A stretch of DNA of 64,000 nt, taken from contig NW_026919509.1 in NCBI RefSeq assembly GCF_032062105.1, positions 1 to 64,000 on the forward strand. Direction: 5' to 3'. The number at the start of each line of letters is the position of its first letter. Position 1 is the first letter of the stretch. Shown piece by piece: positions 643 through 59,848 of the stretch. The DNA comes from Saccostrea cucullata. Lineage: Eukaryota. The notes beneath the pieces are model-generated. The model saw only the letters and a program-made list of their open reading frames with translations. It was not told where the DNA came from and ran no database searches. Both the position numbers and the translations under genes were made by a program.

Positions 643-2223
643 GTAAATGTTATAAATGTATCAAGTCATACTTTAATACCTTTATAACCATCAGTTAACA
701 ATATTCATGTACAAATATGTGAATGTTAATTTCATTTTATGTGATTTTACGTTTATGTCTATGGATATTTTTTATCCATTTTAACTGTCCTGAGTCAAAG
801 GTTCAGTGAGAGAATCTTGTAAAGTTAATTCATTTTAAACATTGATAATTTGCTGCATGTTATATATGCAGCATATAAGGATGGAGAATACATGCATTTT
901 TAAAAATATCTGTGACTGCTAGATACTACACATTGAGAGAGTAAATCCTTCATCCATTTGCTCTATGAAAAAATAACTTTTTATTTATTTGACAAATTCT
1001 GCATTCTGTTGATGTATTAAAACTACACAGTTTTCTTTTTTTCAGTTAAATTATTTATACAGTAAAACACGGTTATAAAAGAGTGCTAGGGACTGATGGA
1101 CAATTTTGCTTCATTATAATTTGAAGTTGTTATATTCGATAAGTTTATATATAAGGAATTAAAATCATTTTGCTGTAAGCATCAATTCATTATAAGCATG
1201 TTTTTTTTCTATAATATTTTTGGTAATTTCTTGTTTTGCTTACCAGTAATGCTCATGGCATTACCAGTAATACATGTGATACCAATACAAATTTGCTGTG
1301 TGTACAATACAAATTTGTTGTGTGTCTATTTTCACAAATCTGTTACATGTATCCGACCAGACCACTTTGAAATGTTTTGTGTAATACGTGTATCTAGAAA
1401 TGTCTTCATTCAAGTAAAATACATGTGCAAAAGGGCTTTTTTTTTATTGGAAATAATTGTTTTTCTCACCTTTTCAGTTAAGCATATACATGTAACATGC
1501 ATCTGAAATGTATTGTGTCTTAATAGTTTTTAAGAGTGCTATTCATGGACACTCTAAACAAAAAAGTCAGTAATCATGTGTTCAAATGGCAAATTTTCAC
1601 AAACTCAAAAATATCTTCTTTTTTTTCATATTTAATAATTTTTAAATCAAAAACTTTAATATACATTCAACATAAGACATTGTTTCCCTATCAAACAATT
1701 TAAAATGGGAAGGAATATTTGTCCTATATTTTGTTTGTTGTTGTTTTTTTTTTATTTTGTATCAGTAAGAACATTGAGTTGGATTAAACAGCAAAACCGT
1801 TCTATGGATTAAAATTGCTTTGTTTATACACCTAGTTGCCTATTTTCTTTGATTTGTATCATTTAAGTATATCCGAGATACAGTGTGTATATGAAAAAAA
1901 GCATAAGACTGAATATCCTATTTGATTTTCTCACACAAGACTGGGGGTTCATGTATAAAGTTACAATCGGGCAGCATTTCAGTCTTTAGATTTTTTGTTA
2001 GATGCTTCAGATCATATTTTGCAATGTTCAAAGCCTGCTTTATATTTAAATTCCTATTTTTAATGGTATTTAGAGAAATAAATCTGAGGAAAAGTGAAGT
2101 CATGTGATTCTTCATGTATCATTTTTGTGTGTTTTAAGGTGCTGTATTGAAAAATCAAGGTTTTGTCAAGTTTGTGTGGAAATGGAATTATGTACTTTAA
2201 AGAATTGTTTTTCTATTTTTTTT

Positions 2224-2612
2224 TTTAGGTCACCTGAGTAACTCAGGTGACCTATTGCTATCCGTTTTCGTCCGTCGTCGTGCGTCGTGTGTTAACATTT
2301 GAACATTTTCAGCTTCTTCTCTGAAACCACTGAACCAATTTCAACCAAATTTGGTATACAGCATCTATGGCAGGAGGGGAACAAAAATTGTGAATTTCAT
2401 GGTCCCCGCCCCCCTGGGGCCTGAGGGGTGGGGCCAAAACCACTAAAATTAATGAAATCTTTAAAAATCTTCTTCTTTACTCCTGGACATCAAGCAGGCA
2501 AACTATTGGCATGAATGTAATGAGCATTGAGTCCTCTACCAAAATTGTGAAATTCATCGCCCCAGGGTCAGGGGTTCTAGTGCTAGGGCGGGGCTCTATA
2601 GATTATATAGTG

Positions 2613-2646
<34 letters not shown>

Positions 2647-2780
2647 GCTCCTGGGTATTAAATAGACTAACTAAGCACATAGTTATGATGAGCAAGAGTG
2701 CCTCTTCCAGAGTTGTGAATTTCATGGCCCCAGGGTCAGGGGTTCTGGTGTTAGGGCGGGGCTCTATAGATTATATAGTG

Positions 2781-2811
<31 letters not shown>

Positions 2812-2947
2812 CCTGCTCTTGGGTATTAAATACACTAACTAAGCACATAGTTATGATATGCAAGAGTGCCTCTCCAAAACTGTGAATTTTATGGCCCCAG
2901 GGTCAGGGGTTCTGGTGTTAGGGCGGGGCTCTATAGATTATATAGTG

Positions 2948-2981
<34 letters not shown>

Positions 2982-3115
2982 GCTCCTGGGTATTAAATAC
3001 ACTAACTAAGCACATAGTTATGATGAGCAAGAGTGCCTCTTCCAGATTTGTGAATTTCATGGCCCCAGGGTCAGGGGTTCTGGTGTTAGGGCGGGGCTCT
3101 ATAGATTATATAGTG

Positions 3116-3149
<34 letters not shown>

Positions 3150-3787
3150 GCTCCTGGTATTAGATTAACTAACTAAGCACATAGTTATGATGAGCAAGAG
3201 TGGCTCTTCCAAAATTGTGAATTTTATGGCCCCGCGGTCAGGGGTTCTGGTGTTAAGTCGGGGCTCTATTGATTATATAGTAAAAATACATTTATTCTTT
3301 GTAAATATTTTTCTTTGCTTCTGGGTTTTAAGCCAATGATCCAAGTATATATATATTTATGATGAAGAAAGGTGCATTTAGCAAAGTGGTTTTTAATGCC
3401 CCCAGGGTCAAAGGGGGGGAGGGGGTTACATAGCCTGAAAATAAATTAATGCTTTGAAATCTGCTCTTTGGTATTAATCAACCATTTTATGATAAAATTT
3501 GCAAAATTTTGAAATATATGGCCCTGGGTCAGTGGTTCCTTTTGGGTGAGGTGCACAACTGGTTATAAAGTGGAAGTGCATTTTCTCTTTGTTACTCTGA
3601 TCTACCTCTGGGTATTAAGTAAATAGAGTAAGCATGCTAAGTTAATAATTATGATAAGCAATGGTGCCTCTTTCAAAATTGTAAATTGTGAATTTCATGG
3701 CCTCTGGTTTAAACACAAACCAAATTTAATTGTTTGAAAGTTGTTACACAATACTCAGGTGACCTATAAAGCCCATGGGCCTCTTGT
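2224..3787 (+). mobile_element. Non-autonomous Helentron-associated element (HINE) with internal ~168-bp tandem array
   Basis: 5' 'tttaggtcacctgag..ctcaggtgacc' hairpin, then a GTC-rich microsatellite, then at least 5 monomers at 167-168 bp spacing (2593, 2761, 2928, 3096). The 3' end has subTIR 'ctcaggtgacc' and palindrome 'gcccatgggc' followed by 'ctcttgt'. Confidence 0.85.
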
Positions 3788-5959
3788 ATTGTTTTCTTGT
3801 GTAATAAAGTTGTCGATAAAAGAGTTGGTGAGCATATTTTCATTTTGATAACTCATGCTGTCGTATTATTATGGTTTATAAATACATTTGCGTGTAAAAG
3901 TCAAGATTTTTCTCAAATTTGTATACTAGAGTATTGAATCAAATTCAAAAAATACAGAAATAATTTATCTGGTTTTGTCAACATATGAAATTAATCAAAT
4001 TTTGTTTGAAATGACTTTATTTGTTGTCTTCTATGATGGAAAAATGTTGTTATTTCTTTATTTCACAGTAAATCATATGAGGCCTTTTTTCATTTTTATT
4101 TTTCACCAAAGTAACAAAAGTTAGTTTACCTGAAAGACATCAAAATTCAATGTCTTTAAGCAGGAAAGGGAGGGAGACTAAAGCCATGACTGTAGGCCCT
4201 TTAATTTAATGTTGCTTTAATCCTTTTACCTGGTACTCCCTCCTATCATTTGATAAATATGAATAAATAATGGTTTTACATGTATCTCTTCATTAGATTC
4301 CTCCGTATTATTTCATATCTCATGCCAATATTATTTCAGAAAATATGTAAAAGTATTTTTATAAAACTAAAAACTTCAGTTCTAAGAAGAGACTGTCTAC
4401 AGAAAATAACTAGATGCTGTCATGAGACAGTAATACCCGCACTAAGGTGTTTGCCTCTAAATGCACACTCCTCTAAAATTAGGCTTTACCAAAGAAAAAG
4501 TCAATATAATTTAATAATTTACATAATAGGGCCTCCAATTGTATTCATCAAATTGAGCATAATATTCTCAAGTGAACATGTGACCCATGGGCCTCGATCT
4601 TATAGGTACATGTATTTCATATTCATAATTCATTACCAGTCTGAAATTAAACAACAGAATTCAATTAATGATGTAAATTAGGTTTGAAACAAGGGGGGGG
4701 GGGTAAAATTTTTGGCCCATAATTGGAACTTTTTAAATCTATTTTCTCATATAGATCAACAACAAATATTATTCAAATTAGTTTAAAGCGTTTTTGATGA
4801 TTTTTTCCAAAATGTACAAACTTTTTTATACTTGATTAGGCAGAAACACCTTGAAAGCTGCCATATACCATGTATACCCAATCAATTTAGTCAACCCCCA
4901 CCCTTCTCCCATCAACACACACACACGCAAACACACCCTATTTTCCTGTTTCTGGAAATAGGCCTAGATGGCAAAGTTAAGATAAAACATCTTTTGTAAA
5001 TAATAATTTTAAATTTGTTCTTATACTGTAAATGTATCTGAAGACCTGCATCACATTGGGCTTGCGTCACGTACCTAACTTAAGTACTAGTTTTACCATT
5101 ATCATTTTTAGATAGCACTGCACGTGCAGTACTAGGCCTAGTGTTGTGTACACATCATTGCATGTATGTCAGTTGGAATTATTTTGTGTTTAATTGGATT
5201 ATATTTCATGAAGTTGGAGCTATGGCAGTCGGTAAGTACATGTTTTGGTATAGAGTTGGGTAAAATAGTCTGAAATGCAACTGGTTAGGTTAAAGTTTAA
5301 AGGATCAAAGGTCATCCGATGCTGCAATAAGACGAATTTCACATCCTACAGAGTTATCGCCCGTTATCGACGTTATATTCAGTTACAAAATACAGAATTT
5401 TTTTCTGAGAGGGAGGGGGGACTTCCAGACCAGAATTTCCTGAGAAGCAAATAAAAGGAGAAGTTATGGTGGTGTCTGTTTTCTAGGGTGGAGGGCATCC
5501 AAAGTCTTTTTTATATTATAGTCCTGCAAATTCGGGGGGGGGGGGTCTCAAGATACACTTCCAGTCCCTGTAAACAATGTGCAAATGATTATGTGACTCC
5601 TAATTAGTGGGAAACTTTTTCCATTTCACCATACATAATTTTGCGCTTTTTGTGTTATTATGGTAAGTAAATTTAATGGTATAAAGGTTTTGAACCCCCT
5701 GGAGGTCATCCCCACTCTCCTAATGATTCTAACTGGAAATGTTCACAATATGACTGCATTAAATGAAATAAAAGTGCATCAATGATAAGATTGCTTGACA
5801 TTTCATTCATCAACCTATCCTCCTAGAATTAGGAATGAAAATCATTCAAAGAGATGGACCACATTAAAGTATTTGTATATAGGCTATTAACATATTTTTT
5901 TTAAATGTAAAACAAGCAGTAGTTTGCATACTTGTCATGAATATAAACAGGGGTCTGGG

Positions 5960-6130
5960 ATGGGGTGAGGGGAAGGATCGAGTTCCTGTCTCTTAACGTC
6001 TTAATGGTTGAAAACTCCTAAAATGAATGTTGACCTCAAATCCGACTTGTCCTCATTATTTTTCAAGTGGGGGTGTCTCCATTTGAGTGAAAAATTCCTG
6101 AGAGGGATGTTTAACAACAAACAAACAATT
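5960..6130 (+). mobile_element. Probable SINE 3' fragment
   Basis: Ends 'tgagtgaaaaattcctgagagggatgtttaacaacaaacaaac', resembling the (CAAA)n-tailed SINE ends common in oysters; recognised from memory only. Confidence 0.4.
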
Positions 6131-6218
6131 AAATGACATAAAAACACAATATTGATTTGCGTTAAGAAATATGCAGGGGATTTTTTCCATCATAAATCTT
6201 CTTCTCAAGAACAGCAAG

Positions 6219-8418
6219 CTCCCTTACCAAAGTAAAATTATTGCAGCAATATTGCTGCTATATTGCGGCAACATTGCGGCAACACATTTTTGTCACCAGA
6301 AACAAGCTTTTTGGGTTAGTGAAATATCACCGCTAGCGGCAACAACTTCTGGTGACATTCCGGCAATACTGTGAGAAAAAATGAAATATCACCGCTAGCT
6401 GCAACAACTTCCGGTGACATTCTGGCAATACTGCCAGAAAAAACTTTCTGGCAACATCTAGGATTACCCATGAACCATTTGTTGAGCATGCTCAGTCATT
6501 TACTTCCTCTTTTTAAATAAAGTGGAGGGAATTCAAAGGCAAGCATGTTTTGCTTCATTACTGACTTGTATCAAGTTGATTAGAGTTGTTAATTGTGTAC
6601 AGTGGGATTAGTCAAGATGAGTAGTCATTTACTTCCTAAGAAGGGAATTCAAAGGCAAGCATTATGTGGACTAACTAGAAAAACAGAATTTAAGCAGAAT
6701 TATAGGAACAAACCCAGAAAAAAGAATTTGTATAGGAATGACTTTGTATACTCTAGCTGTTTCCATATCATCAGACTTGGTGAGTCAAAACCAATATTCT
6801 TTTTGAGATGTCAATGATTCAATGGAGATAAAAATTGGAAAAATTATATGTGTTTCAATTAGTGCTTGTGATGCATGCATACTAGACTTGTATGTCTATA
6901 TATCCTAGAGTAGCAGGAAAAGATGAATTAAAGCATGTTATTTGAAAATAAATGCAGAGTTGCTGGACATTTTCACAGTGGCATATTAATATTGTTTCTA
7001 TAAACATTTTTATACCTGTCTCGATAGATCGGGGGTACATATTGTTTTTGTCCTGTCTGTCTGTAAACTTGAACCTTCACCATTACTTTTGAACCAATGA
7101 GAGATAAAGATTTCATATTTGGTATGTCTACTCCACTAATTATGTTCTTTCAAATGACATCAAGGTCAATGACCTTGTGAACTTGACTGTGACCTATATG
7201 ATAAAAATAGCTTTTTTGAATATTCGTCATAACTTAAAATTAATGAAAGATAGAGACTTTATATTTAGTATGCATAATTCACTAATTAAGCTTTTTCAAA
7301 AAACACCTGAAGCTGAATGACCTTGAGACCTTGGCTGTGACCCACATCCTTAAAATAGATTTTTTGAATCTTGGACATAAATCTTGAGCAATAAAAGATA
7401 GAGAACTTGTATTATGTATACACCCTTCATTAATTAACCTCTTTCAAATAACACCAAGGTCAATGACCTTGGGACCTTGACTGTGACCATATACTTAAAA
7501 TAGATTTTTTGAAACTTCGACATAACTTTTGAGTCATAAAAGATGGAGAATTCAAATTTGATATGCACCCTTCACTAATTAAACTCTTTCAAGTAACACC
7601 AAGGTCAATGACAATTTGACCTTTACTGTGACCCCTATGCTAGAAATAGCCATTTTGATCCTCTGCCATAAATTTTGAACTATAAGAGATAGAGACTTCA
7701 TATTTCGTATGCATACTCCACTTCAATTAAGTTCTTTCAAATGACACCAAGATCAATGATCTTGTGACCTTGACTGTGACCCATATGCTATAAATAGCTT
7801 TTTCAAACTTTATTGCCACAAGGCGCACAGTGTTTCACAAACATATCTTGATTTTCATTATGATGATCAATATAATTTTCTATCTGTTCAAAGAATAGCA
7901 GAAGTAGCTATTTCTTATTGACCCTGTGGCTTGCTATTGTTTAAATTGTTATATTCCTCAGCACAGTTTGTTAATTGTTAGATTGATAGATCATTATTTC
8001 CATTAAATACCAATTGATATCTTAACTTACATACGAAAAACGATATAGCCGCAATATTGTGGCAATAATGCCGGAAGATGTTGGCAGAAGATCAATATTT
8101 TGGTCATGATTTGCAGCAATATTGCTGCAACCCCTTTCTGGCAATATTGCCGCAAAACTAATTAACATACGAAAAACGATATAGCCGCAATATTGCGGCA
8201 ATAATGCCGGAAGATGTTGCCAGAAGATCAATATTTGGGTCATGATTTGCAGCAATATTGCCGCAACCCCTTTCTGGCAATATTGCCGCAAAACTAATTT
8301 ACATACGAAAAACGATATAGCCGCAATATTGCGGCAATGTATTGCCAGAATGTTGCTGCAATATTGCGGCAATAAAATCAGAAGATGTTGCCAGAAGGTC
8401 AATATTTTGGTAACGGAG
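6219..8418. mobile_element. Non-autonomous DNA transposon, CACTA/EnSpm-like, with palindromic subterminal repeats
   Basis: TIR CTCC(C/G)TTACCAAA at both ends; many GCAATATTGC palindromes near both ends; 136-bp tandem units at 8031, 8167 and 8303. Absent at the homologous site of copy 2 (63250-63275). Confidence 0.7.
7008..7851 (+). mobile_element. HINE, ~146-bp-monomer family (diverged copy nested in the CACTA-like element)
   Basis: 5' 'ttttatacc..tcgatagatcgggg', (GTCT)n, 'caaggtcaatgaccttgtga' monomers, 3' 'gtgtttcacaaacatatcttg'. Confidence 0.8.
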
Positions 8419-9274
8419 GGCATTATTGTCCCCCGTTTTGGGGGAAAGGGAGGGAACATTAAATCTTATTTGTCTGTCAGTCTGGCCATCTTTGACAGTA
8501 TGTGCATCTGTCACAATAAATTTAACCTTGATCATAACTTTTGAATAATATGAGATAGGGCTTTCATATTTTACATGTACATTACCACAAAATTTTCTAA
8601 ATGTACTATGATTTTTTAACCCAAGTGAGACCTTGACCTCAAAATTTTACCTACTTTCCAAAAAATAACATTTTAAATTAATCATTTTGAAAGAGAAAAG
8701 ATATGGCATTTAAATTATACATGTATATTACATGTGAAAAGACTTTTCTAAATATATCATGACTTTTGACTTTCTGATCTTGACCTAGAAGTTTAACCTA
8801 CTTTTCAAAAATATTATATTATATATTTATATATTTATATATAACTTTTGATTGAAAAGAGATGGGTCTTTCATATTTGACATGTACTTTACCTGCAACA
8901 AAATATTTCGAGCATGCGATGATTTCCCCCCTTTGACCTAATTTTCATAAAGTGACATATGATAGGGATGCATATTTGATACACAATCTGCCATAAACTA
9001 TGGCATCCCATTCACTAAAACACAGAAAGCAAAGGACCACAATTCTTTGAATTTGCATGTATAATCTTGATATGGAAACATCCTCATATAATGTATATTC
9101 AAGTTTTTTATGCTACGCCATGATTAGGAATACATGTATTAGTTTTTGTCATGTCCGTCCTCCACCCTTCCATCTGTCTTTCCATCGAGCTCAAAGAAAT
9201 TACTTTCTAGATATTTTATCAAAGTTCATATGCTGATGCATATACTGATGTAAACTATCCAACTGTGGCAATAT

Positions 9275-10138
9275 TTTTTATGCGCCCGGATCGATAGATC
9301 CCGGGCATATATTGTTTTTGTCTGTCTGTTTGTCTGTTTGTCTGTTTATCTGTTTGTCTGTTGTCAACTTTAACCTTGGCCATAACTTTTGAACAATAAG
9401 AGATAGAGACTTCATATTTGGTATGCATACTCCACTATTAAAGTCCTTTCAAATGACATCAAGGTCAATGACCTTGTGACCTTGACTGTGACCTATATGC
9501 TAAAAATAGCTTTTTCGACTGTTTGTCATAACTTTTTAACCATAGGAGATAGGGACTTGATATTTGGTATGCATACTCCTCTAATAAAGCCCTTTCAGTT
9601 GACAACAAGGTCAATGATCTTGTGACCTTGACTGTGACCTATATGCTAAAAATAGCTTTTTACACTTTTTGCCATAACTTTTGAACCATAGGAGATAAGA
9701 ACCTCATAGTTGAGATGCTTACTTCACTGATTAAGTTCTTTCAAATGACACCATGGTCAATGACCTTGTGACCTTGACCGTGACCTAGATGCAAAAAATA
9801 GCTTTTTACACTTTTTGCCATAACTTTTTAACCATAGGAGATAGGAACTTCATATTTAGGATGCATACTCCACTGATTAAATTCTTTCAAATGACACCAT
9901 GGTCAATGACCTTGACTGTGACCTATATGCTAAAAATAGCTTTTTACACTTTTGGCCATAACTTTTAAACCATAGTAGATAGGGACTTCATATTTGGGAT
10001 GCATACTCCACTGATTAAGTTCTTTCAAATGACACCACGGTCAGTGACCTTGTGACCTTGACTGTGACCAATATGCTAAAAATAGATTTTGAACTTTGTT
10101 TCCGCCGGGCGCATAGTGTTTCACAAACACATCTTGTT
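9275..10138 (+). mobile_element. HINE, 146-bp-monomer family
   Basis: subTIRs ATGCGCCCGG / CCGGGCGCAT; monomers at 9455, 9601, 9747 and 9893 (146-bp period); 3' hairpin 'gtgtttcacaaacac' followed by 'atcttgtt'. Confidence 0.9.
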
Positions 10139-10948
10139 TACCTTTACTTTCCTTTGACCTTTACTTAACTTTTCTTAAAATTAGTGTTTAGCTTTATTTT
10201 AGAGAAACCATAATGATTCAAGTTGTGTAATGAAACTTCACATGATGATACATACTGATGTAAGCAATTAAAGCTTTACAATGCTTCACTCTTTTTTACC
10301 TTGACATTTCCTGTGATCTTGACCTCACTGTCTTAGACTAGATCAGTTTTGAATAAACAGTTCAAGATATATTAATCAAACTTCATATGCTAATACATAC
10401 TGATGAGATTATTGCATTAACTTATTTTGACCTTGAATTTTCTTTTGACCTTGACCTCACTTTTTAAAATATGTGTTTATCTAAGTTTCAAATAAACCAT
10501 TAATTATATTTTTATCAAAATTCATATGATAATAGTAAATTCACACTGATGTAAGCTTTTCAGCTAGAACAACATTTTGACCACAACCTTTCCTTTGACT
10601 TCTCTTTTCTTAAAACAAAGTGTTAAGCTCAGTTTCATTAAATCATTCAAGATATTTTTATCAAACATAATAAGCTAATATGTATTAGTGAGAGCTATTC
10701 AGCTGCATCAAAAACTTCATCTTGCACATTCCTGTGACCTTGACCTCCCTCCTCTTTAATATGTATTTTGCTTAGTTTTTAAGAAATAATTTAAGACATT
10801 TTTATGTTTAACATGCACTTATACATAATTTGATGAGAATTTATTATCTATATCCAATTTATTTATATTTTAGTTTCAATTCTGAAAAAAAAACTATTTA
10901 AGATATTTTCATCAAACTTTATACACAAATACAAATTTTAGTTTTTAG

Positions 10949-10994
<46 letters not shown>

Positions 10995-11049
10995 TATTTT
11001 GTCCGGCGTCTGTCTGTCTGTCTGTCTAGCTGTCTGTAAACTTTTCACC

Positions 11050-11081
<32 letters not shown>

Positions 11082-11097
11082 TTTCAACCAAACTTGC

Positions 11098-11138
<41 letters not shown>

Positions 11139-11961
11139 ATGAAGGGCCATGCCCTCATTCAAGGGGAGATAATTGGGAATTAATGAAAATTTGGTGGCAT
11201 GTTTTAAAAATCTTCTTCTCAAGAACCACTGTGCCAGGAAAGATGAAACTTATGGGTTAACATCCTCAGGTAGTGTAGATTCAAATTTGTTCAAATCATG
11301 ACCCCCGGGGGTAGGGCAGGGCCAAAATGGCCGACCAAAGTTTTATATAGAAATATATTGGAAAATTCTTTAATAATCTTCTTCTCAAGAACCACTGTGC
11401 CAGGAAAGATGAAACTTATGGAGTAACATCCTCAGATAGTGTAGATTCAAGTTTGTTCAAATCATGACCCCCGGGGGTAGGGCAGGGCCAAAATGGCTGA
11501 CCAAAGTTTTACATAGAAATACATAGGAAAATTCTTTAAAAATCTTCTTCTCAAGAATGACAAAGCCATAATTCATCAAATTTATATGGAAGCATCCTCA
11601 GGTAGTGAAGATTCAAGTTTGTTCAAATCATGACCCTGGGGGTAGGGCGGGGCCAAAAAGGCCGACCAAAGTTTTACATAGAAATTTATGGGAAAATTCC
11701 TTAAAAATCTTCTTCTCAAGAATGACAAATCCATAATTCATCATATTTATATGGAAGCATCTTCAGGTAGTGTAGATTCAAATTTATACAAATCATGACC
11801 CCAGTGGGTAGGGCGGGGCCAAAATGGCCGACCAAAGTTTTACATAGAAATATATGGGAAAATTCTTTGAAGAAAAGCAAATCCATGATTGATCATGGGA
11901 TTACTTTTGGATTTTAACTTTTCAATAATAAAGCAATTTCTACTTTTTCTTAGCTTCAGTA

Positions 11962-11996
<35 letters not shown>
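10949..11996 (+). mobile_element. HINE carrying Cg170-like 166-bp satellite monomers
   Basis: 5' 'ttttagctcacctgagccgaaggctcaagtgagc', (GTCT)n, monomers at 11211, 11377, 11543 and 11708, 3' 'ctcaggtgagcgatgtggcccatgggcctcttgtt'. Confidence 0.9.
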
Positions 11997-11998
<2 letters not shown>

Positions 11999-12439
11999 AT
12001 GTACCATTAGTAATACACATCTGTCCTATAGACATATTTCTAGTTTTTCAAATCATCACCTCAGGTTAGGGTCAGGCCACAATTAGGGATCAAAGTTTTA
12101 TTCAGGAATAAAAGGAAACACATCTTTAAAGTTCTTCTTTTCAGGAACACCAAGAGCATGATTAATATGGAAATATTCTCAAGAGGTGTAGATTCAAGTT
12201 TGTACAAATCATGACCACCAGGGTTAGGGAGGTGCCATATTTTTCCAGCCCCTTTTTGCCATCCATATGAAAATTCAAATTTTGAAACCATTTTACACAT
12301 ACACAAAACAAACCAATCATTTTCTAAATGATCATGGTTTAAAGCTATTGCAGCATAAGATATTAGGGAAGTTCTTGAAAGCAGGGTGATTAAACATGTC
12401 AAATATATGTAAAAAAAAAAATATATATATAAAAATTCT

Positions 12440-13314
12440 ACCTCGATTTGATCCCCATCCCCCCCACCCCCCGGGCAAAATGAAAATTCCGAAACCTTAC
12501 TGCACATCTACATGACACCACCAACCATCTCTTAAAAGATGATAAGGCTTCTGAGTAAAATGTAGAAGGAGTTCAGGGAAGAAGGGGCTTTTTGTATAAA
12601 AAACGTCATTTTTCGACCCCCATTTGATCCCCCGGGGCAAAATCAAAATTCCGAAACCTTACTGCACATCTACATGACACCACCAACCATCTCTCAAAAG
12701 ATGATTAGGCTGCTGAGTAAAATATAGAAGGAGTTCAGGGAAGAAGGGGCTTTTTGTATAAAAAACGTCATTTTTTGACCCCCATTTGATCCCCTGGGGC
12801 AAAATCAAAATTCCGAAACCTTACTGCACATCTACATGACACCACCAACCATCTCTCAAAAGATGATAAGGCTGCTGAGTAAAATGTAGAAGGAGTTCAG
12901 GGAAGAAGGGGCTTTTTGTATAAAAAACGTCATTTTTCGACCCCCATTTGATCCCCCGGGGCAAAATCAAAATTCCGAAACCTTACTGCACATCTACATG
13001 ACACCACCAACCATCTCTCAAAAGATGATTAGGCTGCTGAGTAAAATGTAGAAGGAGTTCAGGGAAGAAGGGGCTTTTTGTATAAAAAACGTCATTTTTC
13101 GACCCCCATTTGATCCCCCGGGGCAAAATCAAAATTCCGAAAACTTACTGCACATCTACATGACACCCCTAACCATCTCCCAAAGGATGATTAAGCTACT
13201 GTGAAAAATGTAGGAGGAGTTCAGGGAAGAAAAGTGTGACAGACGGACGGACGGACGGACGGACATGAGTAACAGCAATATACCCGAACTTTCTTTCGAA
13301 AGTGCGGGTATAAA
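12440..13314 (-). repeat. 162-bp tandem array (x5) plus (GGAC)n and 5' hairpin: head of the large composite element
   Basis: Near-identical monomers at 12489, 12651, 12813, 12975 and 13137; the same monomer reappears at ~63820-64000. Confidence 0.9.
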
Positions 13315-13417
13315 GAATAGGGAATTAGTGAAGGGTATCTTCGACTGTCTCAATCATTAGAACTTTATTATGTTAGTATGTACATAAAATATGTCCATAG
13401 TTTTTACTGTGTTATGT

Positions 13418-15703
13418 TCAATCCTCTATTAGACCCAGACTGAAAAGAAGAAATGAAGAAATAATAAATAAATTATAGCAATGCTCAGATGAAACCTTTT
13501 CTAACCTTTTTCTCTATATGTAGGTCATCTTTGTTAATTGCAAAGTGTTTTTTTTTTCTTTTTGTATGAGGACATTAAAAATACATGATTATATACATTA
13601 CGTATATGATTTTTTCTCATAAAAGGAGTTGATCCCTACACTGTTCATAAGAATGATAGAATGTTACGGACAGCTGATACGTTCCTCAATAATATATAAT
13701 TTTTTCCAAGGTTTTGTCATTGAAGTATTGCTACTTTAATATGTTTACTCACAAAAAATTGAGGTACCTTACCAGACATTTGTGCAAGATATCAGAGGGT
13801 AGTGTGTTTAGATAATCCTTAAACTTATTTTTTTTAAATCAAATTTTTTGGTGTTTCAATTTTTTTAAGACGATTAGAAATAGAAATCAGAATGTACCTA
13901 AAATTTCTGAATATTTTTCATACATTACAAAAATATAGAAAAACAGACATTTGAGGAACGTTATAGTCTGCCCTTAAGGCAGAAAGTATCTACCTCTTTT
14001 TCGTCACGTTACCTGTCCTCACAAATGGCGTGCAGTAGTGCACTACACGGCCAGTCCCCGTACAGAAATCCACCCTCAGCCCACAGTCCCGCGCAGTCCT
14101 CGTTAGGGTGGTCGTCTGGTTGATGTGGACCCCACTTCACGTACGTAGCCAGCTCGTTGTTGGGGGAGTCCTGCGGTGCGTTCAGTCTTGTGTTTCCCAT
14201 CCACATCCACTCTCCCTGTACAAGGGCGTCTGACAGGTTAATCCAGTACTCCTTTACATCGAAAGAGGCTAACAAAAAAAATAGTCAATTTCAATTCACT
14301 GAAAAAAATGCTAAATACGCTTCAAAATTTAAATAATTTGAATAATGAAGACAGGTTGTTGTTCCTTAATTGTTCTTACTGTCATTTGCTTTTAATTGAT
14401 TTGCTACTTGAATCAAAAAGTTGTGCTCTGCGGCTGACTCGATTCGAACAAGTTCGCCTCCAAGTGTTGCACAGTACGTCTACAAAATCAGGATTTGTAT
14501 GTGTATTTTCTGTAGGTGAATGTAACAAACAACATACATTTACATTGTATTAATTGCCATCGATAGGGCACACTACATTGCACACCTTGTTCAATTGGTA
14601 CTCTGGGTTTTCAAACTAGTATATACTTACGATAGCTTCTGGCCAACTGAAATGTTCATGCACAAATTTGTAGCATGACTGGTGAAAAGTATAAGTGTTT
14701 GATCCCAGCTGACAATTCGGTTGGCCTTGACACGATATTACGAATGCTAGAGCTACATGTATTGCAATACCTAAAAGAAATCGACAAAAACGAGCAATGT
14801 ATTACAAAATCCAAGCAGAATCAAGATGTGTTTGTGAAACACTATGCGCCCGGCGGCAGCAAAGTTCGAAAAAGCTACTTTTTAGTATTTTTAGCATATA
14901 GATCACAGTCAAGGTCACAAGGTCATTGACTTTGGTTTTATTTGAAAGAACTTGATTAGTGGAGAATGCAATTCAAATATGCAGTGTCTATCTTCTGTGG
15001 TTTAAAAGTTATGGCGAAGTTACAAGAAAGCTTTATTTAGCATACAGGCCACAGTCAACGTCACAGTCATTGAACTTGATGTCATTTGAAAGAGCTTGAT
15101 TAGTGGAGTATGCATACCAAATATGAAGTCTCTAATATCTTTCATAGTTCAGAAGTATATATATGGCGAAGGTTAAATTAAGTTTGCAGACAAAAAGCTA
15201 TTTTTAGCATATGGGTCACAGTCAAGGTCACAAGGTCATTGACCTTGGTGTCATTTGAAAGAGCTTAATTAGTGGAGTATGCATACTAAATGTGAAGTCT
15301 TAATCTTTCAAAAGTTATGGCGAAGGTTAAACTTTGCAGACAAATAGACAGACAGACAGGACAAAAACAATATACGCCCCGGATCTATCGATCTGGGCGC
15401 ATAAAAATCGGTTAACATTTATACATCTTCGCTAGCCAAGGATTTCTGATACGCTTCTCTCATTTATGAGGGGAGTAGCGTATCAGAATCCTTTGGCTTC
15501 TAGCGAAGATGACATTTGTAAAGCTAGGGCTGTCTTAATTCATCTTTTCCTCTTGCCATACATAGAGGATATATTAGTATTATTCCACAACTGTTGAAGA
15601 CGTTAGGTCAATTTTTGATAGAACAAGTGTTAACAAAATTTTGATTTTATTTATAAAAAGAATTTTAAAAAACTATGGAAATGTACTTACATAGAAGTAA
15701 CAT
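13418..15703 (-). CDS. Secreted single-domain C-type lectin (perlucin-like), ~176 aa, QPD motif
   Basis: Exons 15703-15691, 14770-14631, 14479-14380, 14268-14013 and 13439-13418, all GT-AG and in phase (531 nt). Signal peptide MLLLCIAIHVALAFVISCQG; CTLD motifs SCYKFV..SWPEA..YCATLGGELVRIES..WINLSD..GEWMW..WGPHQPD..EDCAGL..YGDWPC..ICE. AATAAA on the minus strand at 13364-13369. The last exon is less certain. Confidence 0.85.
13664..13977. mobile_element. Degenerate TTAA-flanked (Kolobok-like) MITE in a lectin intron
   Basis: Imperfect inverted ends 'ttacggacagctgatacgttcctc' and 'gaggaacgttatagtctgcccttaa'. Confidence 0.4.
14822..15407 (-). mobile_element. HINE, 146-bp-monomer family, in intron 1 of the minus-strand lectin
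   Basis: Reverse complement of the termini and monomers of the 9275-10138 element. Confidence 0.85.
15424..15511. repeat. 88-bp palindromic mini-element
   Basis: 'catcttcgctagccaaggatttctgatacgct' pairs with 'agcgtatcagaatcctttggcttctagcgaagatg'. Confidence 0.75.
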
Positions 15704-15909: not shown

Positions 15910-17141
15910 CAGCCTTAGGCATGCGTTGTGTGAGCCTATATAATTGTTGTCTTGTAGTCCAGGTCACAGAATCTATAGAAGTCTGTCCTGATGGATTCAT
16001 CAAACATCACGGTTCCTGTTACAAGTTCCTACACCATCATCTCAGCTGGCCGGAGTCTATTGTCGGTTTTACACAATATTACAAAATTACACACTCCTTT
16101 ATGTTTTTGATTCCCTAAAGAGCAAGGCCTGTAAAACTCAAATTCATCGACATTATAGTCAATATTTTGGTTCATACCCCAATGTACTTTCAAAAATAAA
16201 GTTAATTACTTTCTCTAATCGAGTAATTATTACATGTACACCGAGTTAACGTTAATTGAACACGTTTAGATTACCAACATTATAACGCAGGTTATTATCA
16301 TAGCCTTTGAGACTCCAAAATGTACAATTTTTTCTTATAAAATATATCTCAGAATACTTGTATTTTAAAGAGTGTACTAATCTTTCTAGACTTTCTGTAA
16401 AGTGATTGGTGCTCACCTTGTTACCATAGAAACAGAAAATGAACACAATTTTCTGATACAGAAAATTCATGAAATCGAAGGTATTATCTTCAAATATACA
16501 TGTAAATACACATTTGATACATGTATATACTACTACCAAATGTATTATCTTATTCTCATTTTTTATCTCTAAATTTGAAAATGGCGTACGATGCTAATTA
16601 GTGTATTGAATTATTATTAATATTCAAGAATACGTGATCCAGTTATTTACATATAGCCTATACATGTAGGTTCTTTCGATGTCAAGGACTTTTGGATTGA
16701 CCTAAACGACGCAGCAGACCAGGGTACATGGATGTGGAGCCTAACCCACACACAGGCCACTTACCTCAAATGGGGAGGGGGTAACCCCAATTATTTCGCC
16801 CGGGAGGACTGCGGGGGGCTGTTTCACGGTGGTCAGTACTTCTTTGGAGACTTCGTATGTGACCGGAAACAACACCTTATCTGCGAAATAAAGTACGTGG
16901 TTGTTAGATTTTGATATATTTTTTCAATATATTATTAAGGAAGATTAATTTTTTGGAAAAATATTTAAGAATTTCAACAATGTATACATTTTTCAATAAT
17001 TAATAAGTTTCTCTCTCTATATTCAAAAATAACTGAGTTAAAAGTTTTACCAGATTGAATTTTATTAACTTCTTAAAATATTAATTATCAATTTTTTATG
17101 TAATTTTCAGTTTAAACTTTGGAGAGGCAATTATTGGATAA
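15811..17141 (+). CDS. Secreted single-domain C-type lectin (perlucin-like), ~166 aa, NPN/FGD motifs
   Basis: Exons 15811-15862, 15958-16061, 16390-16480, 16670-16892 and 17111-17141 (501 nt, in phase). Protein MTMNKCDLLGLFLYLFSIQVTES-IEVCPDGFIKHHGSCYKF..SWPES..FCKVIGAHLVTIE..FWIDLND..GTWMW..WGGGNPN..EDCGGL..FGDFVC..ICEI..AIIG*. AATAAA at 17187-17192. Confidence 0.85.
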
Positions 17142-17532: not shown

Positions 17533-20500
17533 ATGCCTGGCGTTGAAGATTGGACAACTAACCCTTTAGGAATCGTTCAGAGTATTTATGGTAGGCGTCA
17601 TTTTGATGATTATTTTATTAGAAATCAGCAGCACCTACGGACGTGTGTTTAAAGTCGCACATGTGCACACTATATGGCACGTCCAATCGCTTGATTCAGC
17701 TTTATAGCTTTAATGCCATCAATAGCCCCAAAACTTATAGAACTTTGAGTACAAAGTCTCACAAGGAAACGCAATTTAGTGACTGATTTCTGTATATATA
17801 TACTTCACATATAAAAATACACAAGGGAAGAATCGAAAGTAGCACACGATTTTTAAAAAAAGTCAAAAAACTTACTTGAGAAAAGTTACACAAATCCTGA
17901 AAGGAACTAGCGTAAATAATGTCCTAGAACTTATCCAGGCTAAAATATTCCAGATATATCCATCGAAAATAGCTTTATCCAACTAAAACCCCAGCTTTCT
18001 GCACAGTGTGAAACTCTTCGCCCAAGAAAAGATAACTCACCCGGATGACAATAGAGTAGTACCCGAAGTCTTCCAATGGCACTCGGAAGGCCTCGGGTCC
18101 TACCCTATTGTCATCCGGGTGAGTTATCTTTTCTTGGGCGAAGAGTTTCACACTGTGCAGAAAGCTGGGGTTTTAGTTGGATAAAAGCTATTTTCGATGG
18201 ATATATCTGGAATATTTTAGCCTGGATAAGCACTAGGACATTATTTGCGCTAGTTTCTTTCAGGATTTGTGTAACTTTTCTCAAGTAAGTTGTTTTTTGA
18301 CTTTTTTTAAAAATCGTGTGCTACTTTCGATTCTTCCCTTGTGTATTTTTATATGTGAAGTAGAGAACAGAGTGGATAAGATGCCCCTGTGCTTTGAACT
18401 TCAAAGTAGAATATTATCAGTACACTTTTTGTACACGCTGAGAAAATAACACATTTTGGAAAAAGTGTAATGAAATAGCTTAATAAAGCTATTCTGAATA
18501 GCTTAATAAAGCTATATAGCTTAATCAAGAGATCGTGCCGGACCTGACTAATAAGTGTTGCAGCTTGCATGTGCTTAGATCTGTAAAGTGTGAGTAAATG
18601 TGAAAATGATAGATGTTTGTCAAGACTCAAGACCACTTATTCTGAAGTTATTCATAAACATTCCATTATTAAATGATTTTGTTTATTGTAGACAAGCATG
18701 GATCAGCAAGTTCTGAAAAGGTCCAAGAATACTTTCATAGCAAAACAAACTCAGAAACCGCTCGCCTATGGGTAAGATTAATTTTAAGACGATTTTGGTT
18801 AGACCTTGAAGGTGAGAATTATTTAAGATTGGTGAATGTTATATTTTCTATTTTAAATGTTTAATAAAGTACAACAACTGAACAAACTTTAACCAAACAC
18901 CCCCCCACCCCCCACCCCCCGACAATTATTTAAAAAGCAGATTTAAATATTCATACCTGTTTTGATGTTTCAGATACCCAGTTTAAATGACACACCTCTT
19001 CACTGTCTCCTGCCCAATTCCTTGGTGCGATACCGGTGTATGGTCCAGGACATGTTTGACCCAGAGTTCTACATGGGGGAGTATGAAGTGTCAGATGTCA
19101 ATACAAAGGCTACCTCCATGAAGTCGGGGAAATACAAGGATATAGCAGAATGTGCTGTATGTAATATACACACTACATATTTTATTTAAGAAATATTTTT
19201 TTGTCAGGCATTTACAGAAAAAGGCCTGCAGATTAAGTTTCAATATGATTCAAAACATATTAGACCTAGCTGCAGAACTGTAGCATTATGGTTATACATA
19301 TATGTATATATTAGTATACATATATGTATATATTAGTGAAGTCTTTGACCATAAAACTACAGTTCTCGTAATGCAAAAAATGTGCAATTTACGGTGCAAA
19401 ATTTTTTGCGCACTGTTTGTGATTATGTCTCCTCTTTCCAACTTTGGTAAATCATCTACCTTTCACTCCCTAGTTCCAGACACATTCTTAAACCAATTTT
19501 TATATTTTATACAACCCTTTACAGTCGCCTCTACAGGTGATTTGAATTTTCTGAGGGATTACAGCTAATTCTAGTTCAAGGGAGTTTATCGCTTCTAGAG
19601 ACCATTATGAAATATATATATAAAGGTAGATGATTAACCAATGTTACACTGCGCAAAAAATCTTGCGCCCTAAATTGCACTTTTTTTAGCATTTCGGGAT
19701 CTGTAGCGTTATGGTCAAAGACTAACATTTAAAACCATAACGCTACAATTCTGCAGCTATATTAGACCATGAAAATTCCCATACTTTAGAATAGGACAAT
19801 CTTGTTAAAATAAATTGAATACTAATAAAGAAAGAAATGGTAAATGTCACTCAGCAGAGCAAAAAAAAAAAATGCTATGGATGATGTGATTGTGAATTGT
19901 AAAAGAAAAGATTTACCTTTTTATGTTACTTTGTAGAAGCATCAAGAAATCAACATGGATTCAGATAAAAATGTTACAATGGAGAGACAGACTCTGTACT
20001 GTGTCCCTATTCCAGGAGAAACTGAATGGGTCAAGTCAATATCCTTTTGCAATAATATTAGTTAGCTGTAGCCGCATGCTGTCTCCACATTAGCAGCCAT
20101 GGCATGCACAATAAGTTAGTAAAATTACTCTCAAGTTTGTGAAAAGTTCATTCCAGCAAGCTCAGTGGGATTCAGATTATAGTACAAGATTCCTTAACTT
20201 TGTAACGGTTACTCAGACAAAGCCGGGAAGAAGAGTTTTCCCACGTCCTCTGTGTCCTCCGGTAGGACCAAGCGAGGACTGGAGGAGGAGGAGCCTCGGT
20301 CTGATACTCACATGGAGGAGGAGTCTGAGGGGACAGGGAGGAAACCCGAGGACACCACCAATAAAAGACCACGGCCAGATAGTGGGGAAGGTGAATAACT
20401 CAAATCCTGTACAACCTCTGTAACAATTGCACATGTAGTATCTAATCTGTAGCCATTATTTATAATACTGTAGATTCCTAAATATAAGCGTGGAATTAAT

Positions 20501-20809
20501 TATCGCATAATTTCGCATGAAGCACAACACGCCAAATTAAATTACTTGCCTTTATTTTTATGGTGCTGAAATCTATGTTAAAACTCTTGATCAACCGCCC
20601 ATTCGCGAATTCTTATTCTCGCGATTTGCTGTTGAAGAGCTCATTCGCGATAAAAAGTACTCGCGAACAATAAGGAATCTACAGTAATTGTCATCAGGTT
20701 TGTAATTCTGAACTTATATAAGGTGATTCGTTCATTGTGTTAGTTTGGACTCCCAACAAATTTTCTCTATGATTCGTGCACAATGTAATTACACAAATGG
20801 TGAAAACAC

Positions 20810-20844
<35 letters not shown>

Positions 20845-23800
20845 CTACTGAGTCTGTTGGTAAAGATTATTAAGGTCTTCCGTCTTCAGCGGAAGACCTT
20901 ATTGTTTTTCTTAGGTTTCTTTTCCACTATTTTTATTATTATTGTTTTTTTTTCTTACCGATTTTGTACGCGCGATTTCTCGAGAACGGCTCGATCGATG
21001 TTCATGAAACTTTCAGGTCTGATAATACATCAAAAAATCTAGACATATATTTTTTTATTTTGATGACGTCACTTCCGGTTCGGAGTTTTCTGCGATTTAG
21101 TGATTTTTAGAGGGTCACTTTGTCCGGCAGTTTTCTCAAAAAGCACTGAACACAGAAGCTTGAAATTTTCAGTGATGCTAGAGCAACCTTTGGAGAAGTG
21201 CACTAAGTATATCACAACTACCGGAAGTACGAAGCGCCGACGCTCGCTATGGCCCGAAAATAGTCCTATCAAGAATTTCAAAATTTTAAGCACCTTTTCA
21301 ACGATAACTTTTTACCTAGAAATATTTTGTTAAAGCATGTAGAACAAAAATGGTTTAGAATTTAAAGATCTTTCAAATGACATCTCGAAAAAAGGGCTGG
21401 CCCCTTAAATCAGGGGCCTGGTGGGGCCAAAAGTTTTTCCTTTATATCTCAAAAAGTATTGAGAATTTGTGATGCGTCAAAGAAGCAAAGTTGTTGAAAA
21501 TGTCAAGCTTAATCTATTGAAGTCGTCAAAATACGTCCGGCGTCGTCACTTCCGGCCAAACCGGAAGTAGTCGGAAAACGCGTATTTTTGCCGTTCTTGA
21601 CAAGTTTTTTGGTTACACATGTCTCTGGGAGCATTAAAATTAATTTTCCGTCCGTTGTCGTCACTTCCGGTCAAACCGGAAGTAACAGAAAATGGCTTGT
21701 TTTTGCAATAATTAACATGGATTTAGAGGAATCAAACAATTTTTGGACGTTATTTCTCATTTTTGTTAAAAATGAAAGCCACTTCCGGTCAAACATGACG
21801 GAAGACCTACTCGTTGCTTTGCAACGAGCTTTGCTCTAGTTATTCTTTTTTTTTCTTCTACTTCCTAGACGCCAACTTTGAAGCCTCGTATCTCACTCAT
21901 TTCTCAATAGATTTCGCTCAAAATTTCAGAGTTTATAGACGTTGCTAAACTCTATTAAAATATTGTCTATTATTTCAAAAATTCACTTCCAGTTTTGAGT
22001 TATTTCCCTTTAAACGAAAATTTATAGGCTTTCATTTCCAGATAAAGGCTCAGAGACCACAAGGGCTGGAACAGACATTTTACTTATTTTAGATAATAGA
22101 AGTATTGAAGTTGTGCACATCAGTTTTTGTTTCTCGATTTCTCTACTGTAAATCACTTTTTATTCGCGAGAACTTTATTTTCGCATAATTACGCGAGACA
22201 GTGTACTCGCCAAAATTTAATTCTCGCGTATAATAGTATTCCTTAAGAATATATAGAGCAATAACCACAATTCGCGAAAATTTTGTCTCGCTAATCAAGA
22301 GTCAATAACTATGTCACAAAAATAAGGTGTCGCGAAAATTTAGTGATCTACAGTATTCAAAATGGCGCTATATAGGGGTAAAAAATTAGAACGCCTAAAA
22401 GAGCGAAAATTTACACATATTTTCCTTTTTATCTTCTAAACTAAATATATTTTGTTAAAACATATATAGTGATGGGGAATCGGAAAAAAATCAGAATCGA
22501 TTATCGGTAATAATCGGCTGGGCATAATCGATTAATAATCGATTATAATCGAAATTTTGAACTTTAATAAAATTAATATAGAAAAGTTGAAACTTATTCA
22601 GATTTCTGTCAGACTTTTACAAAAAAAAAACAAACATTTACTTACATAAAATATTCAAAAATGTTATTTAAATTTCTTTTATAAAAAGTGGAAAATAATA
22701 TTTTGTTTACTTTAAACAATATAGGACTATATAAGACTATTGAAACAGAATGGGAATTTATTTTTTTTTTTTATAAAGTCCATGCAATGGGTATTTTACT
22801 GATATTAGTCCCACCTTTCATTTAATACATGTATATTTTTCTTAAAATTAGTTTTAATTAGTTAAAATAATAAAATTGCAAGTCTTAAAAGTAAATATCC
22901 AGAAGTTAGACTTGTATTTATGATAATGATTACGTTTAAAGATTGACTAGACTAATTATGTTTTCCTTTGTATAGTAAAACCTTGCAATATTAGCGTTTC
23001 CTGGTATTAGTCTAACCACATATTTAATCATGGCGGTAAAAGTATCAACAAGACACGGAATCCTTCCATGTTTTCAACGTTCATCACTACTTTTATGCTC
23101 TTTGCGCTTAAATTTGGTAATAAAATTAAAGTATGACAATTTTATTTTTTGTTAGCGATGTCGGCGACATTTATTTTATAATCGATTAGTAGCATCGAAG
23201 AGCTTCTAACGACCGACAATCGATTGTCGGCGACAATCGTTCCATCACTAAAGATATAGAACAAAATTTGTGCAGAATTACAAGATCTTTCTAATGATGT
23301 CTCAGAAAAAGGACTGACCCCTAAATTAAGGGATCTAGAGGGGCCAAAAGTTTTTTTTCAGATATCTCAAAAAATATTAAGAATTTGTCAAACATCAAAG
23401 AAGCAAAGTTGTTCAAAATCTTTAGTAAATTCTATTGAGATCATCAAAATACGTCCTGTTATGTCACTTCCGGCCAAACCGGAAGTAGTCAGAAAATGCA
23501 TATTTTTGCCGTTTTTGACACGTTTTTGGGAAATATTTGTCACTGAAAGTATAAAACTTAATTTTCCGTCCGTCGACGTCACTTCCGGTCGAACAGGAAG
23601 TAGCAAAAATTGCTTACTTTTGCAATTATCAACGTAGATTTGGAAGATTTAAATCATTAGAGACGTCATTTTTCTTTTCTTTTTTTTTTTAATAAAAGTT
23701 ACTTCCGGTCAAACAGGACGGAAGACCTACTCGTTGCTTTGCAACGAGCTCGGCTCTAGTGTTTAGTTTTATAATAATATTTGGTTTTCTCTGATTATAG

Positions 23801-33874: not shown

Positions 33875-34260
33875 TTAACAAGCATATTTCGTCTCCACCC
33901 GGAAGTGGCCCTGGTTCGTGTCGGCTTTTACATGCTCCATGATAGGTTTGGGAACATCGACTTTTGGATTACAAATGAAGTAGACATTTGAAGAATACTT
34001 TGTCGGGTGGTCGATCACACTGCCATGGAACATTTGTAAAAATACTCCTTAAAAAGAAACAAACAATTCGCTATAGCCAAGTTGTTGGATTTACTCACCT
34101 GAGCCGAAGGATTATTTTTTGTCAAAATTTTCCGTAAACTGTCGTTGTCGTTGTCGTCGTCGTCGTCGGCGTAAACTTTTCACATTTTCATCTTCTTGTC
34201 AAAATCACTACCAAATTTAACCAAACTTGGCAAAAAGTATCCTTGGGTGAAAAGATACAA

Positions 34261-34298
<38 letters not shown>

Positions 34299-34641
34299 AA
34301 ATTGAATTTATTAAAAATTAATGGCACTTTTAAAAAATCTTCTTATATACCACTGGGCCAGGAAAGATGAAACTCATGTGGAAGCATCCTCTGGTAGCGA
34401 AGATTCAAATTTGTTCAAATCATGACCCCCGGCAAGGGTGGGGCCAAAATGGCTTCCCAAGTTTTACATAGGAATGTATAGGAAAAATCTTTAAAAATCT
34501 TCTTCTCAAGAACCACTAGGCCAGGAAAAATGAAACTCATGTGGAATCATCCTCAGGTAGTGTAGATTCAAGTTTGCTTAAATCCTCCGGCAAAATTCAA
34601 AATGGAACCCTAGTATTACATAGGAATATATAGGGAAAATC

Positions 34642-34675
<34 letters not shown>

Positions 34676-58866: not shown

Positions 58867-59034
58867 CGCTGCATTTCATTTCCGGAAATATGCATAGCAT
58901 TTCCGACAATTTTTTATTTCATTTCCGACATTTTTTGTTTTCATTTCCGACATAATATTTCTTTCATTTCCGGAATTTACCTGTGCGGCAATTCAATGTT
59001 TTCTTAAAGTATTTATACCAAAATATTGATACAA

Positions 59035-59079
<45 letters not shown>

Positions 59080-59403: not shown

Positions 59404-59848
59404 AAATACACACTCCTTCATATTGGACTTTCCAAGGAAGAAGTCAAAATAATTCTATAATTATCACCGTACACGTATTCGTCAAATTGAACATGAAATT
59501 TTCAGGTGACCATATGATCTATGAGCCTCACATATGTATTTTGAATACTTAATTCATTACCAGTCTGAAATAACAGAATTTAATTAATGATTGAAGTAAA
59601 TTACTTAATTAGATTCAGATAAATATTTTGCCCATAATTTGGAACTTTTTAAATTTACTTTCTCAACGACATATTATTTTAGTACAAAGCGTTTTTGATG
59701 AATTTATCAAAATGTGCAAACTGATTTTAGTACTTGGTCGGGAAAAAAACCCATTGAAAATACAACCCGATTAATTTGTCAATGCCTATCTCTCTCTCTC
59801 TCCCCCCCCCCCCACACACACTCTCTCTCTCTCACTCTCACATTTTTT

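Follow-up and report, generated by a model that had tools for sequence, protein, structure and literature searches.

An 8.9-kb non-autonomous Helentron with nested transposable elements in Saccostrea cucullata

Structure and family of the element

The stretch of DNA analysed here, called the window throughout, comprises 64,000 nucleotides of Saccostrea cucullata (positions 1 to 64,000 of contig NW_026919509.1, assembly GCF_032062105.1) and holds, on its minus strand at 4410–13313, a complete non-autonomous Helentron (HINE) of 8,904 bp, hereafter copy 1, as well as part of a related element, copy 2, whose 3′ end lies at 58810. Read along the minus strand, copy 1 consists of TT, a subterminal inverted repeat (subTIR), an inner repeat, a (GTCC)n microsatellite, 4.7 units of a 162-bp array, 8 kb of interior, the second subTIR, a hairpin, CTAG, and again TT. 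Its 5′ terminus (13238–13313, minus strand) contains the TT, the subTIR at 13301–13311, an inner repeat of ATACCCGCACT with one mismatch at 13280–13290, which as 13279–13290 forms a hairpin, and (GTCC)n at 13238–13265, followed by the element's own central array (12467–13231, minus strand, 96% matches), a distant homologue of the array cluster CL11. The 3′ terminus (4410–4466, minus strand) is formed by the subTIR at 4433–4443, a hairpin with a 5-bp stem at 4417–4430, and CTAG. The window contains three exact matches to the 11-mer ATACCCGCACT, at 4433–4443 (+), 13301–13311 (−) and 58833–58843 (+). CTAG begins at 4410 in copy 1 and at 58810 in copy 2, and the AA preceding it is, on the strand of the element, the TT of the target; copy 1 has TT on either side and copy 2 at its 3′ end, and T-runs flank copy 1 on the element strand. 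In both copies, as well as in two metagenome loci (L023 and L030), CTAG lies 7 bases after a 14-base palindrome. The hairpin at the 5′ end is a strong one (z −5.3, reached by 0 of 200 shuffles), and the end itself, TT plus subTIR, is unlike that of canonical Helitrons (HLE1), which have a 5′ TC and insert between A and T (PMC4067079). All the landmarks of a HINE are present at 4410–13313. The earlier note had paired a 3′ terminus at 4408 with a 5′ terminus at 13314 and had seen the former recur at 58808; pairing and recurrence (55 of 57 bases identical) both stand, and only the limits shift, to 4410, 13313 and 58810.

The Pacific oyster family Cg_HINE_11_12 (Repbase Helitron-N17_CGi / N17B_CGi; PMC7492417 Table S2) has the same subTIR TATACCCGCAC, inner repeat GTTCGGGTATA, (GTCC)n, hairpin stem CTGTC/GACAG, 162-bp monomers, TT site and multi-kb length, and differs by one base of the hairpin loop (TCAT against TAAT) and in that copy 1 is 8.9 kb long, with 46% intact nested elements. 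One of the four array motifs of the window was present in the array table of PMC7492417, in three CL11 rows; the array monomer is ~66% like one CL11 row (107/162, ungapped, by eye), the CL clusters being cut at 70%. A 138-bp CL12 second array was absent from the element according to the tandem-repeat list and to two CL12 motifs (0 and 3 matches, at chance level), and the 136-bp array at 8023–8338, considered as a CL12 candidate, was dropped on the same counts. Because of the ~66% monomer and the missing CL12 array, we assign copy 1 to a sister family and not to Cg_HINE_11_12 itself. For the latter, a 4,104-bp empty-site example and a Repbase right end at 4390–4449 are recorded, and right ends were located for just 31% of arrays, with up to 4 kb of flank taken (PMC7492417), so that multi-kb size was already known for the lineage. 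The proposal of a multi-kb rolling-circle vehicle is upheld as one multi-kb HINE, not as a size new to the family: copy 1 is a mobile HINE whose lineage is known and whose length is roughly double that on record.

More broadly, HINE/DINE-1 (PMC4067079) and HLE2 elements (PMC11417382) are described with the same subTIRs, 5′ inner repeat, microsatellite, central repeats, 3′ stem-loop, T-T insertion and non-coding content. Copy 1 differs from them in being far longer than the 0.9–2.6-kb consensus of most Cg_HINE families and in ending with CTAG, a feature of the canonical (HLE1) 3′ CTRR; mixed elements with CTAG and subTIRs are already known in C. gigas (PMC7992393). A metagenome scan returned 38 loci, 18 with the family 5′ end (34–42 of 45 bases identical) at 17 distinct flanks and 16 of these 18 directly after TT; the other 20 failed a tighter family pattern and were set aside as chance matches. 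The core at 4470–6160 was matched by 0 of the 38 loci, the 3′-end pattern by no locus in metagenome and viral contigs, and the 5′-end pattern by none in genome and viral contigs. At two of the 17 sites (L023:1217–1923 and L030:5013–5308, with L004 at the same site as L030), a family 5′ end lies ~620 and 265 bp, respectively, inside the 3′ end of another member in opposite orientation, an arrangement that could reflect self-insertion or inversion.

The empty site, repeat depth and the second copy

Four of 24 listed public runs (X1, X4, X8 and the RNA run X22) were mapped to window positions 3400–14600 at 85% likeness; the run shares, at most 0.42, played no part as evidence. One contig of X4 (record 9; 1,125 bp) matches 13645–13345, continues with 22 letters, and then matches 4410–3784, at a depth of 6.27, which is single-copy for X4. 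It provides the empty insertion site in another genome that had been proposed as a check: since it joins the flanks without the 8.9 kb, both ends belong to one insertion, and its ~89–91% likeness to the window assigns it to a related genome. The two flanks of copy 1 have only A/T runs in common. That each of its termini instead comes from a short HINE of its own, with host DNA separating the two, a possibility also raised in the earlier note, is very improbable, as the region holds a single end of each kind, the empty allele lacks everything in between, and the interior is deep and multi-copy; if sound, the empty-site contig contradicts this explanation at this locus. To the left, a Cg_HINE_4-type element with a 167-bp array occupies 2222–3787; the matches of X4 record 9 and X1 record 2 stop near its end, and the alleles that these contigs represent may lack this element too.

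In X1 single-copy depth was 7–12.5, in X4 it was 6.3. The medians for these two runs reached 2,328 and 439 at 15 listed core positions (186–330 and ~70 fold single-copy, respectively), 4,763 and 1,132 at 15 positions in the insert at 6219–8418, and 4,042 and 474 at six positions to its right, with bin depths of 3,198 and 703 at 10506–10879 and of 4,945 and 2,028 at 12002–12375, all of these being summed contig depths, which do not equal copy number and are pushed up by overlapping short contigs. With the whole interior at ~70–330 times single-copy depth, the sequence is a repeat family, and we read the interior copies as being of the order of a hundred, not as a count. Low-coverage contigs of X8 are 97–99.5% like the interior of copy 1 (records 17, 18, 19, and 21), one of them bridging 8940, and 90–93% variants occur beside them (records 16, 20, and 22).

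Copy 2 (58810–64000, minus strand) shares with copy 1 the 3′ end (4408–4466/58808–58866, 96.6%), three interior blocks (4452–4939/59397–59826, 67%; 4956–5656/61499–62323, 63%; 8423–8939/63265–63750, 67.5%), a short block (6167–6217/63208–63258, 96%) and the 162-bp array (85–91%), inside which the window ends (63783–64000). The interior blocks score 196–254 against a maximum of 34 in 100 shuffles, in agreement with the collinear, diverged sequence and common array that had been described. The comparison of the 600-bp left flanks gives a score of 24; shuffles average 23, and 45 of 100 reach 24. Flank homology, which would have spoken for duplication of a larger segment, was sought and found at chance level, and with the interior blocks far above it, homology begins at the terminus. 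In aligned columns, the 3′ end is identical at 55 of 57 positions, the array at 88% and the interior at 79–81% (Kimura two-parameter distances of 0.22–0.24 for the interior, with the ends at 0.04 substitutions per site), compared with 55% for unrelated flanks under the same aligner; the excess conservation of the ends over the interior has a binomial P of 1e-4 to 1e-3.

A local segmental duplication that by chance starts at a HINE end would agree with the same orientation of the copies, 54 kb apart, and with their collinear blocks, yet the flanks lack homology, ends and interior differ in divergence (0.04 against 0.22–0.24 substitutions per site), copy 1 resembles further copies in the runs far more closely than it does copy 2, and a related genome has the site of copy 1 empty; we regard such a duplication as extremely unlikely, and transposition, as first proposed, is supported. 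The copies had been distinguished by their nested insertions. Those are real, but the copies also differ beyond them, because 5660–6110 shows no homology to 62320–62830 (score 20, reached by 69 of 100 shuffles) and ~1.6 kb of non-insert sequence of copy 1, within 8941–12465, is absent from copy 2. What had been taken for one element present twice is, judged by these alignments, a pair of old sister subfamilies with alike ends and not a local duplicate.

Interior, nested elements and neighbouring genes

The intervals that had been given for the inserts were confirmed in both copies (6219–8418, 7008–7856, 9273–10141 and 10946–11998 in copy 1; 58867–59403 and 59845–61500 in copy 2). Beyond the 3′ terminus of copy 1, the non-coding interior at 4467–6166 has multi-copy depth; 4467–4940 and 4956–5656 are common to copy 2, and a decayed group-1 HINE 3′ end lies at 4561–4595. 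It is followed by a 51-bp Cg170-like block (6167–6217, plus strand) that forms the left side of the next insertion site. This block is identical at 49 of 51 positions between the copies, with surroundings at ~80% (P about 4e-4 to 3e-3), and multi-copy contigs place it after a further HINE end as well (joint 10136 to 6185); constraint or conversion would be possible causes.

The largest insert, a 2,200-bp non-coding element with terminal inverted repeats (TIRs) at 6219–8418, is present in copy 1 and not in copy 2, and has 2.0–2.6 times the core depth in three runs. It carries a 13-bp TIR, CTCC[C/G]TTACCAAA, 62-bp and 136-bp arrays, and 11-bp subterminal repeats at 6239–6282 and 8315–8374. CACTA/CMC elements have TIRs starting with CACTA or CACTG, a 2–3-bp target site duplication (TSD), and short subterminal repeats in both orientations. 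The earlier CACTA-like label could not be maintained: of these features the element has the subterminal repeats, and its superfamily is not established, because both ends start with CTCC and there is no clear TSD (the flanks are AG and GG, and copy 2 has a strongly diverged empty site). Nested in it is an older HINE with a 146–148-bp array (7008–7856, plus strand), which belongs to the multi-copy form of the TIR element, as X8 record 18 (depth 95.7) bridges 7855.

Further along copy 1 there follow, all on the plus strand, a decayed HINE-like segment (8423–8939, common to copy 2 at 63265–63750), a nested HINE of 5 × 146 bp with the 3′ palindrome of Cg_HINE_8 (9273–10141), decayed HINE-type tandem repeats restricted to copy 1 (10148–10805; self-BLAST 66–69%, core-level depth), a nested Cg_HINE_1-type element with 3.7 Cg170-like monomers of 166 bp (10946–11998), and decayed Cg170-like monomers (12038–12238; nhmmer E 1.9e-7 and 7.7e-18; the reversed control had no such match). 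The Cg_HINE_1-type element matches PMC7492417 Table S2 in subTIR, inner repeat and palindrome, and shows very high run depth, with loose ends at 10949 and 11997. Free HINEs of families nested in copy 1 occur elsewhere in the window, at 14820–15405 (−) and 34090–35144 (+). In copy 2, the insertions are a 537-bp TIR element (58867–59403; 21-bp TIR with one mismatch, 8-bp TSD AAATACAC) and, on the strand of the host element, a 156-bp-array HINE (59845–61500, minus strand). The latter had been described as a single element and is a head-to-tail dimer with two 5′ ends, at 60843 and 61501, a form described for rolling-circle elements (PMC7492417). Both insertions are found in copy 2 only, and a decayed HINE-like array (62315–62830, plus strand) lies where copy 1 has unrelated sequence. 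The statement that the element collects other transposable elements is borne out by nested HINEs and TIR elements in both copies.

Profiles built from the window's HINEs identified remnants at 4561–4595, 8524–8888, 9066–9107 and 12038–12238 in copy 1 and at 62315–62772 and 63129–63303 in copy 2, the reversed control giving two weak microsatellite matches in nine profiles. The three intact inserts of copy 1 (the TIR element and two HINEs) amount to 4,122 bp or 46%, leaving a stripped length of 4,782 bp, and ~2.4 kb of interior lies outside every recognised part. None of 81 open reading frames (ORFs) of at least 45 aa in the element reached the Pfam cut-off, whereas five out of six window ORFs used as controls passed, and no Rep, helicase or endonuclease remnant was found in this search; sub-threshold matches of 4 of the 81 ORFs (Cas9_PI2, DUF2650, UL11, zf_topless, Ssr4_N) were treated as noise. 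In X22, a single RNA sample, the core was covered by 3.5–15 reads per mate direction, equally both ways and with no start or end sites. The cargo had been called ordinary-looking genomic DNA; it is in large part decayed HINE, with no coding match and no sign of a transcript in that one run. The core at 4956–5656 does keep, in the alignment of both copies, words that we take to be CCAAT-like, CRE-like and GTAAGT donor-like. Bat Helitrons carry promoters and untranslated regions (PMC4224331), and a captured host promoter or first exon spread by the element is thus conceivable here, but with the ORF search, the RNA run and the absence of the 15 listed joints from this core all against it, we hold it to be improbable.

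Whether the three intact inserts were already in the source copy or were added at this locus bears on what is mobile. A skip joint, i.e. one that passes over an insert, should reach core depth (thousands in X1) and so outrank every listed joint (maximum 485), and the 15 joints listed include none that passes over the TIR insert or one of the two intact HINEs. The core and the TIR insert are both ~1–3% from consensus-like contigs, so that a 4.8-kb element would have had little time to receive three insertions, and both sides of each insert are multi-copy. On balance we lean towards inserts carried from the source copy as cargo. Several points weigh against this: 3,914 further joints lie beyond the 15 listed, which makes the missing skip joints weak evidence; among the listed pieces none bridges an outer insert junction; and the TIR element, at 2.0–2.6 times the core depth, also occurs outside the 8.9-kb element and could have inserted here alone. 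The opposite view, that a 4.8-kb HINE is the mobile unit and that the TIR element and two intact HINEs entered copy 1 after landing, the 8.9-kb form being dead and locus-specific, is a serious though less probable contender; the stripped length is near the 4,104 bp and 4,449 bp given for the related family, all three inserts come from families deeper than the core, and oversized single-copy predictions often turn out to be nested transposable elements (PMC11417382).

Around copy 1, two divergent C-type lectin genes are predicted at 14009–14284 (−) and 15980–16900 (+) from Lectin_C matches, the minus-strand exon having a donor-like end, and copy 1 may therefore be intronic or situated just downstream of a C-type lectin gene. 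Exons of an MCM-binding protein gene occupy 17533–24500 (plus strand; MCM_bind E 1e-24), a 562-bp near-perfect foldback (17801–18362, 95% self-complementary) is located in an intron, and a gene with CARD-like exons lies at 28400–32100 (−). The remaining features are an 80%-identical repeat pair (21331–21840 with 23249–23760), several fragments, in either orientation, of a single dispersed repeat at 35421–49873 (65–87%, some frames resembling a retroelement C-terminus by eye), and a reverse-transcriptase remnant of a long interspersed nuclear element in two frames (51449–53163, plus strand; RVT_1 E 2e-28).

Proposed mechanism and significance

Taken together, copy 1 is in our judgement quite probably one 8.9-kb, non-coding, HINE-ended element, absent from a related allele and multi-copy, likely moved in trans by the Rep/helicase of a Helentron and likely carrying nested transposons. 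Several observations count against this, besides the upward push on summed depth. The 3′ hairpin folds in prediction and yet is no stabler than shuffles (z −0.9); the empty site comes from one contig of one run, ~89–91% like the flanks, and its right breakpoint is open over 31 bases; no listed piece covers the whole element or bridges 6219, 8419, 9273, 10141, 10946 or 11998; and the window covers copy 2 only from its 3′ end to 64000, short of its 5′ end. An autonomous Helentron partner did not turn up, no genome-wide search for one having been made, and PMC7492417 could tie no Cg_HINE to an autonomous element. The 40 differences listed in the runs, with 1,527 more beyond them, were set aside for dating the inserts, as tandem arrays map to several places.

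In the one Helitron studied by experiment, a canonical one and not a Helentron, the 5′ end was required, the 3′ hairpin terminated the process, and circles formed (PMC4778049). By analogy, single-strand rolling-circle copying by a Helentron Rep/helicase acting in trans would nick the 5′ end, displace one strand, stop at the 3′ hairpin and join the copy into a TT site without duplication. Because only the ends would be needed, the interior would be free to grow and inserts would be copied along. Over a long time, other HINEs and the TIR element may have entered the source copy, the older ones decaying while the enlarged lineage kept amplifying. The nested ends are from other families and on the other strand, and would for that reason not stop replication. 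Copy 2 would stem from an early split, as a sister subfamily whose interior has diverged by about 0.24 substitutions per site, and would have reached its place, 54 kb away, by an insertion of its own, the near-identical ends being likely held by the need for enzyme recognition.

Six of the seven recognisable nested HINEs are antiparallel to their host (one-sided P 0.06), a count made without L023 and L030/L004, for which the search detects antiparallel cases more easily; the exception is the young dimer in copy 2, which may be a private, late insertion. For Fusarium, it was proposed that an inner 3′ end on the same strand stops the enzyme and that opposite-strand nesting keeps the outer ends (PMC5148889). 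A strand filter of this type would let nested HINEs persist in mobile form only if antiparallel, since a same-strand 3′ end would halt replication. That a HINE carrier amplified the TIR element (with its inner HINE) and two HINEs to hundreds of copies, accounting for up to half of the TIR copies, while filtering cargo by strand, is a speculative and rather unlikely extension, and the strand bias is a lead only, not a result.

Comparable nesting has been reported elsewhere. Bat Helibat Helitrons were likewise amplified with secondary insertions (DNA transposons, retrotransposons, nested retrogenes; PMC4224331), but these are canonical and mammalian, whereas in the present case a HINE holds a TIR element and further rolling-circle elements as its cargo. 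Helitron parts nested in Helitrons also occur in Fusarium, as composite, self-inserted Helitrons (PMC5148889), and in C. gigas, as shuffled Helitron loci (PMC12628747); the form described here differs in appearing multi-copy with an empty site and in having inner elements from other families. In the literature searched we found no oyster 9-kb multi-copy HINE with nested cargo, which a Repbase entry or supplement may nevertheless list; full-text matches for 'Helitron-N17' numbered 0, and PMC8268682 and PMC12001565 added nothing specific.

Current views stand, as the family, multi-kb HINEs and Helitrons carrying transposable elements are already in print. In Crassostrea, rolling-circle elements make up 43–58% of the 2–4-kb structural variants related to transposable elements (bioRxiv 10.64898/2026.02.10.705023), HINEs being the chief variants of that size, and a 9-kb member indicates that they also make large presence/absence differences near genes, here by a C-type lectin gene. 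Repeat annotation cuts copy 1 into about ten fragments, with the effect that insertions are miscounted. If the inserts were indeed carried as cargo, some dispersed satellite arrays and TIR elements would have spread as passengers, affecting dating and copy counts. We found in the literature no direct experiment on the strand and hairpin that terminate Helentron replication, and should the strand filter prove true, oyster genomes would offer a natural test of how strand and hairpin end it.

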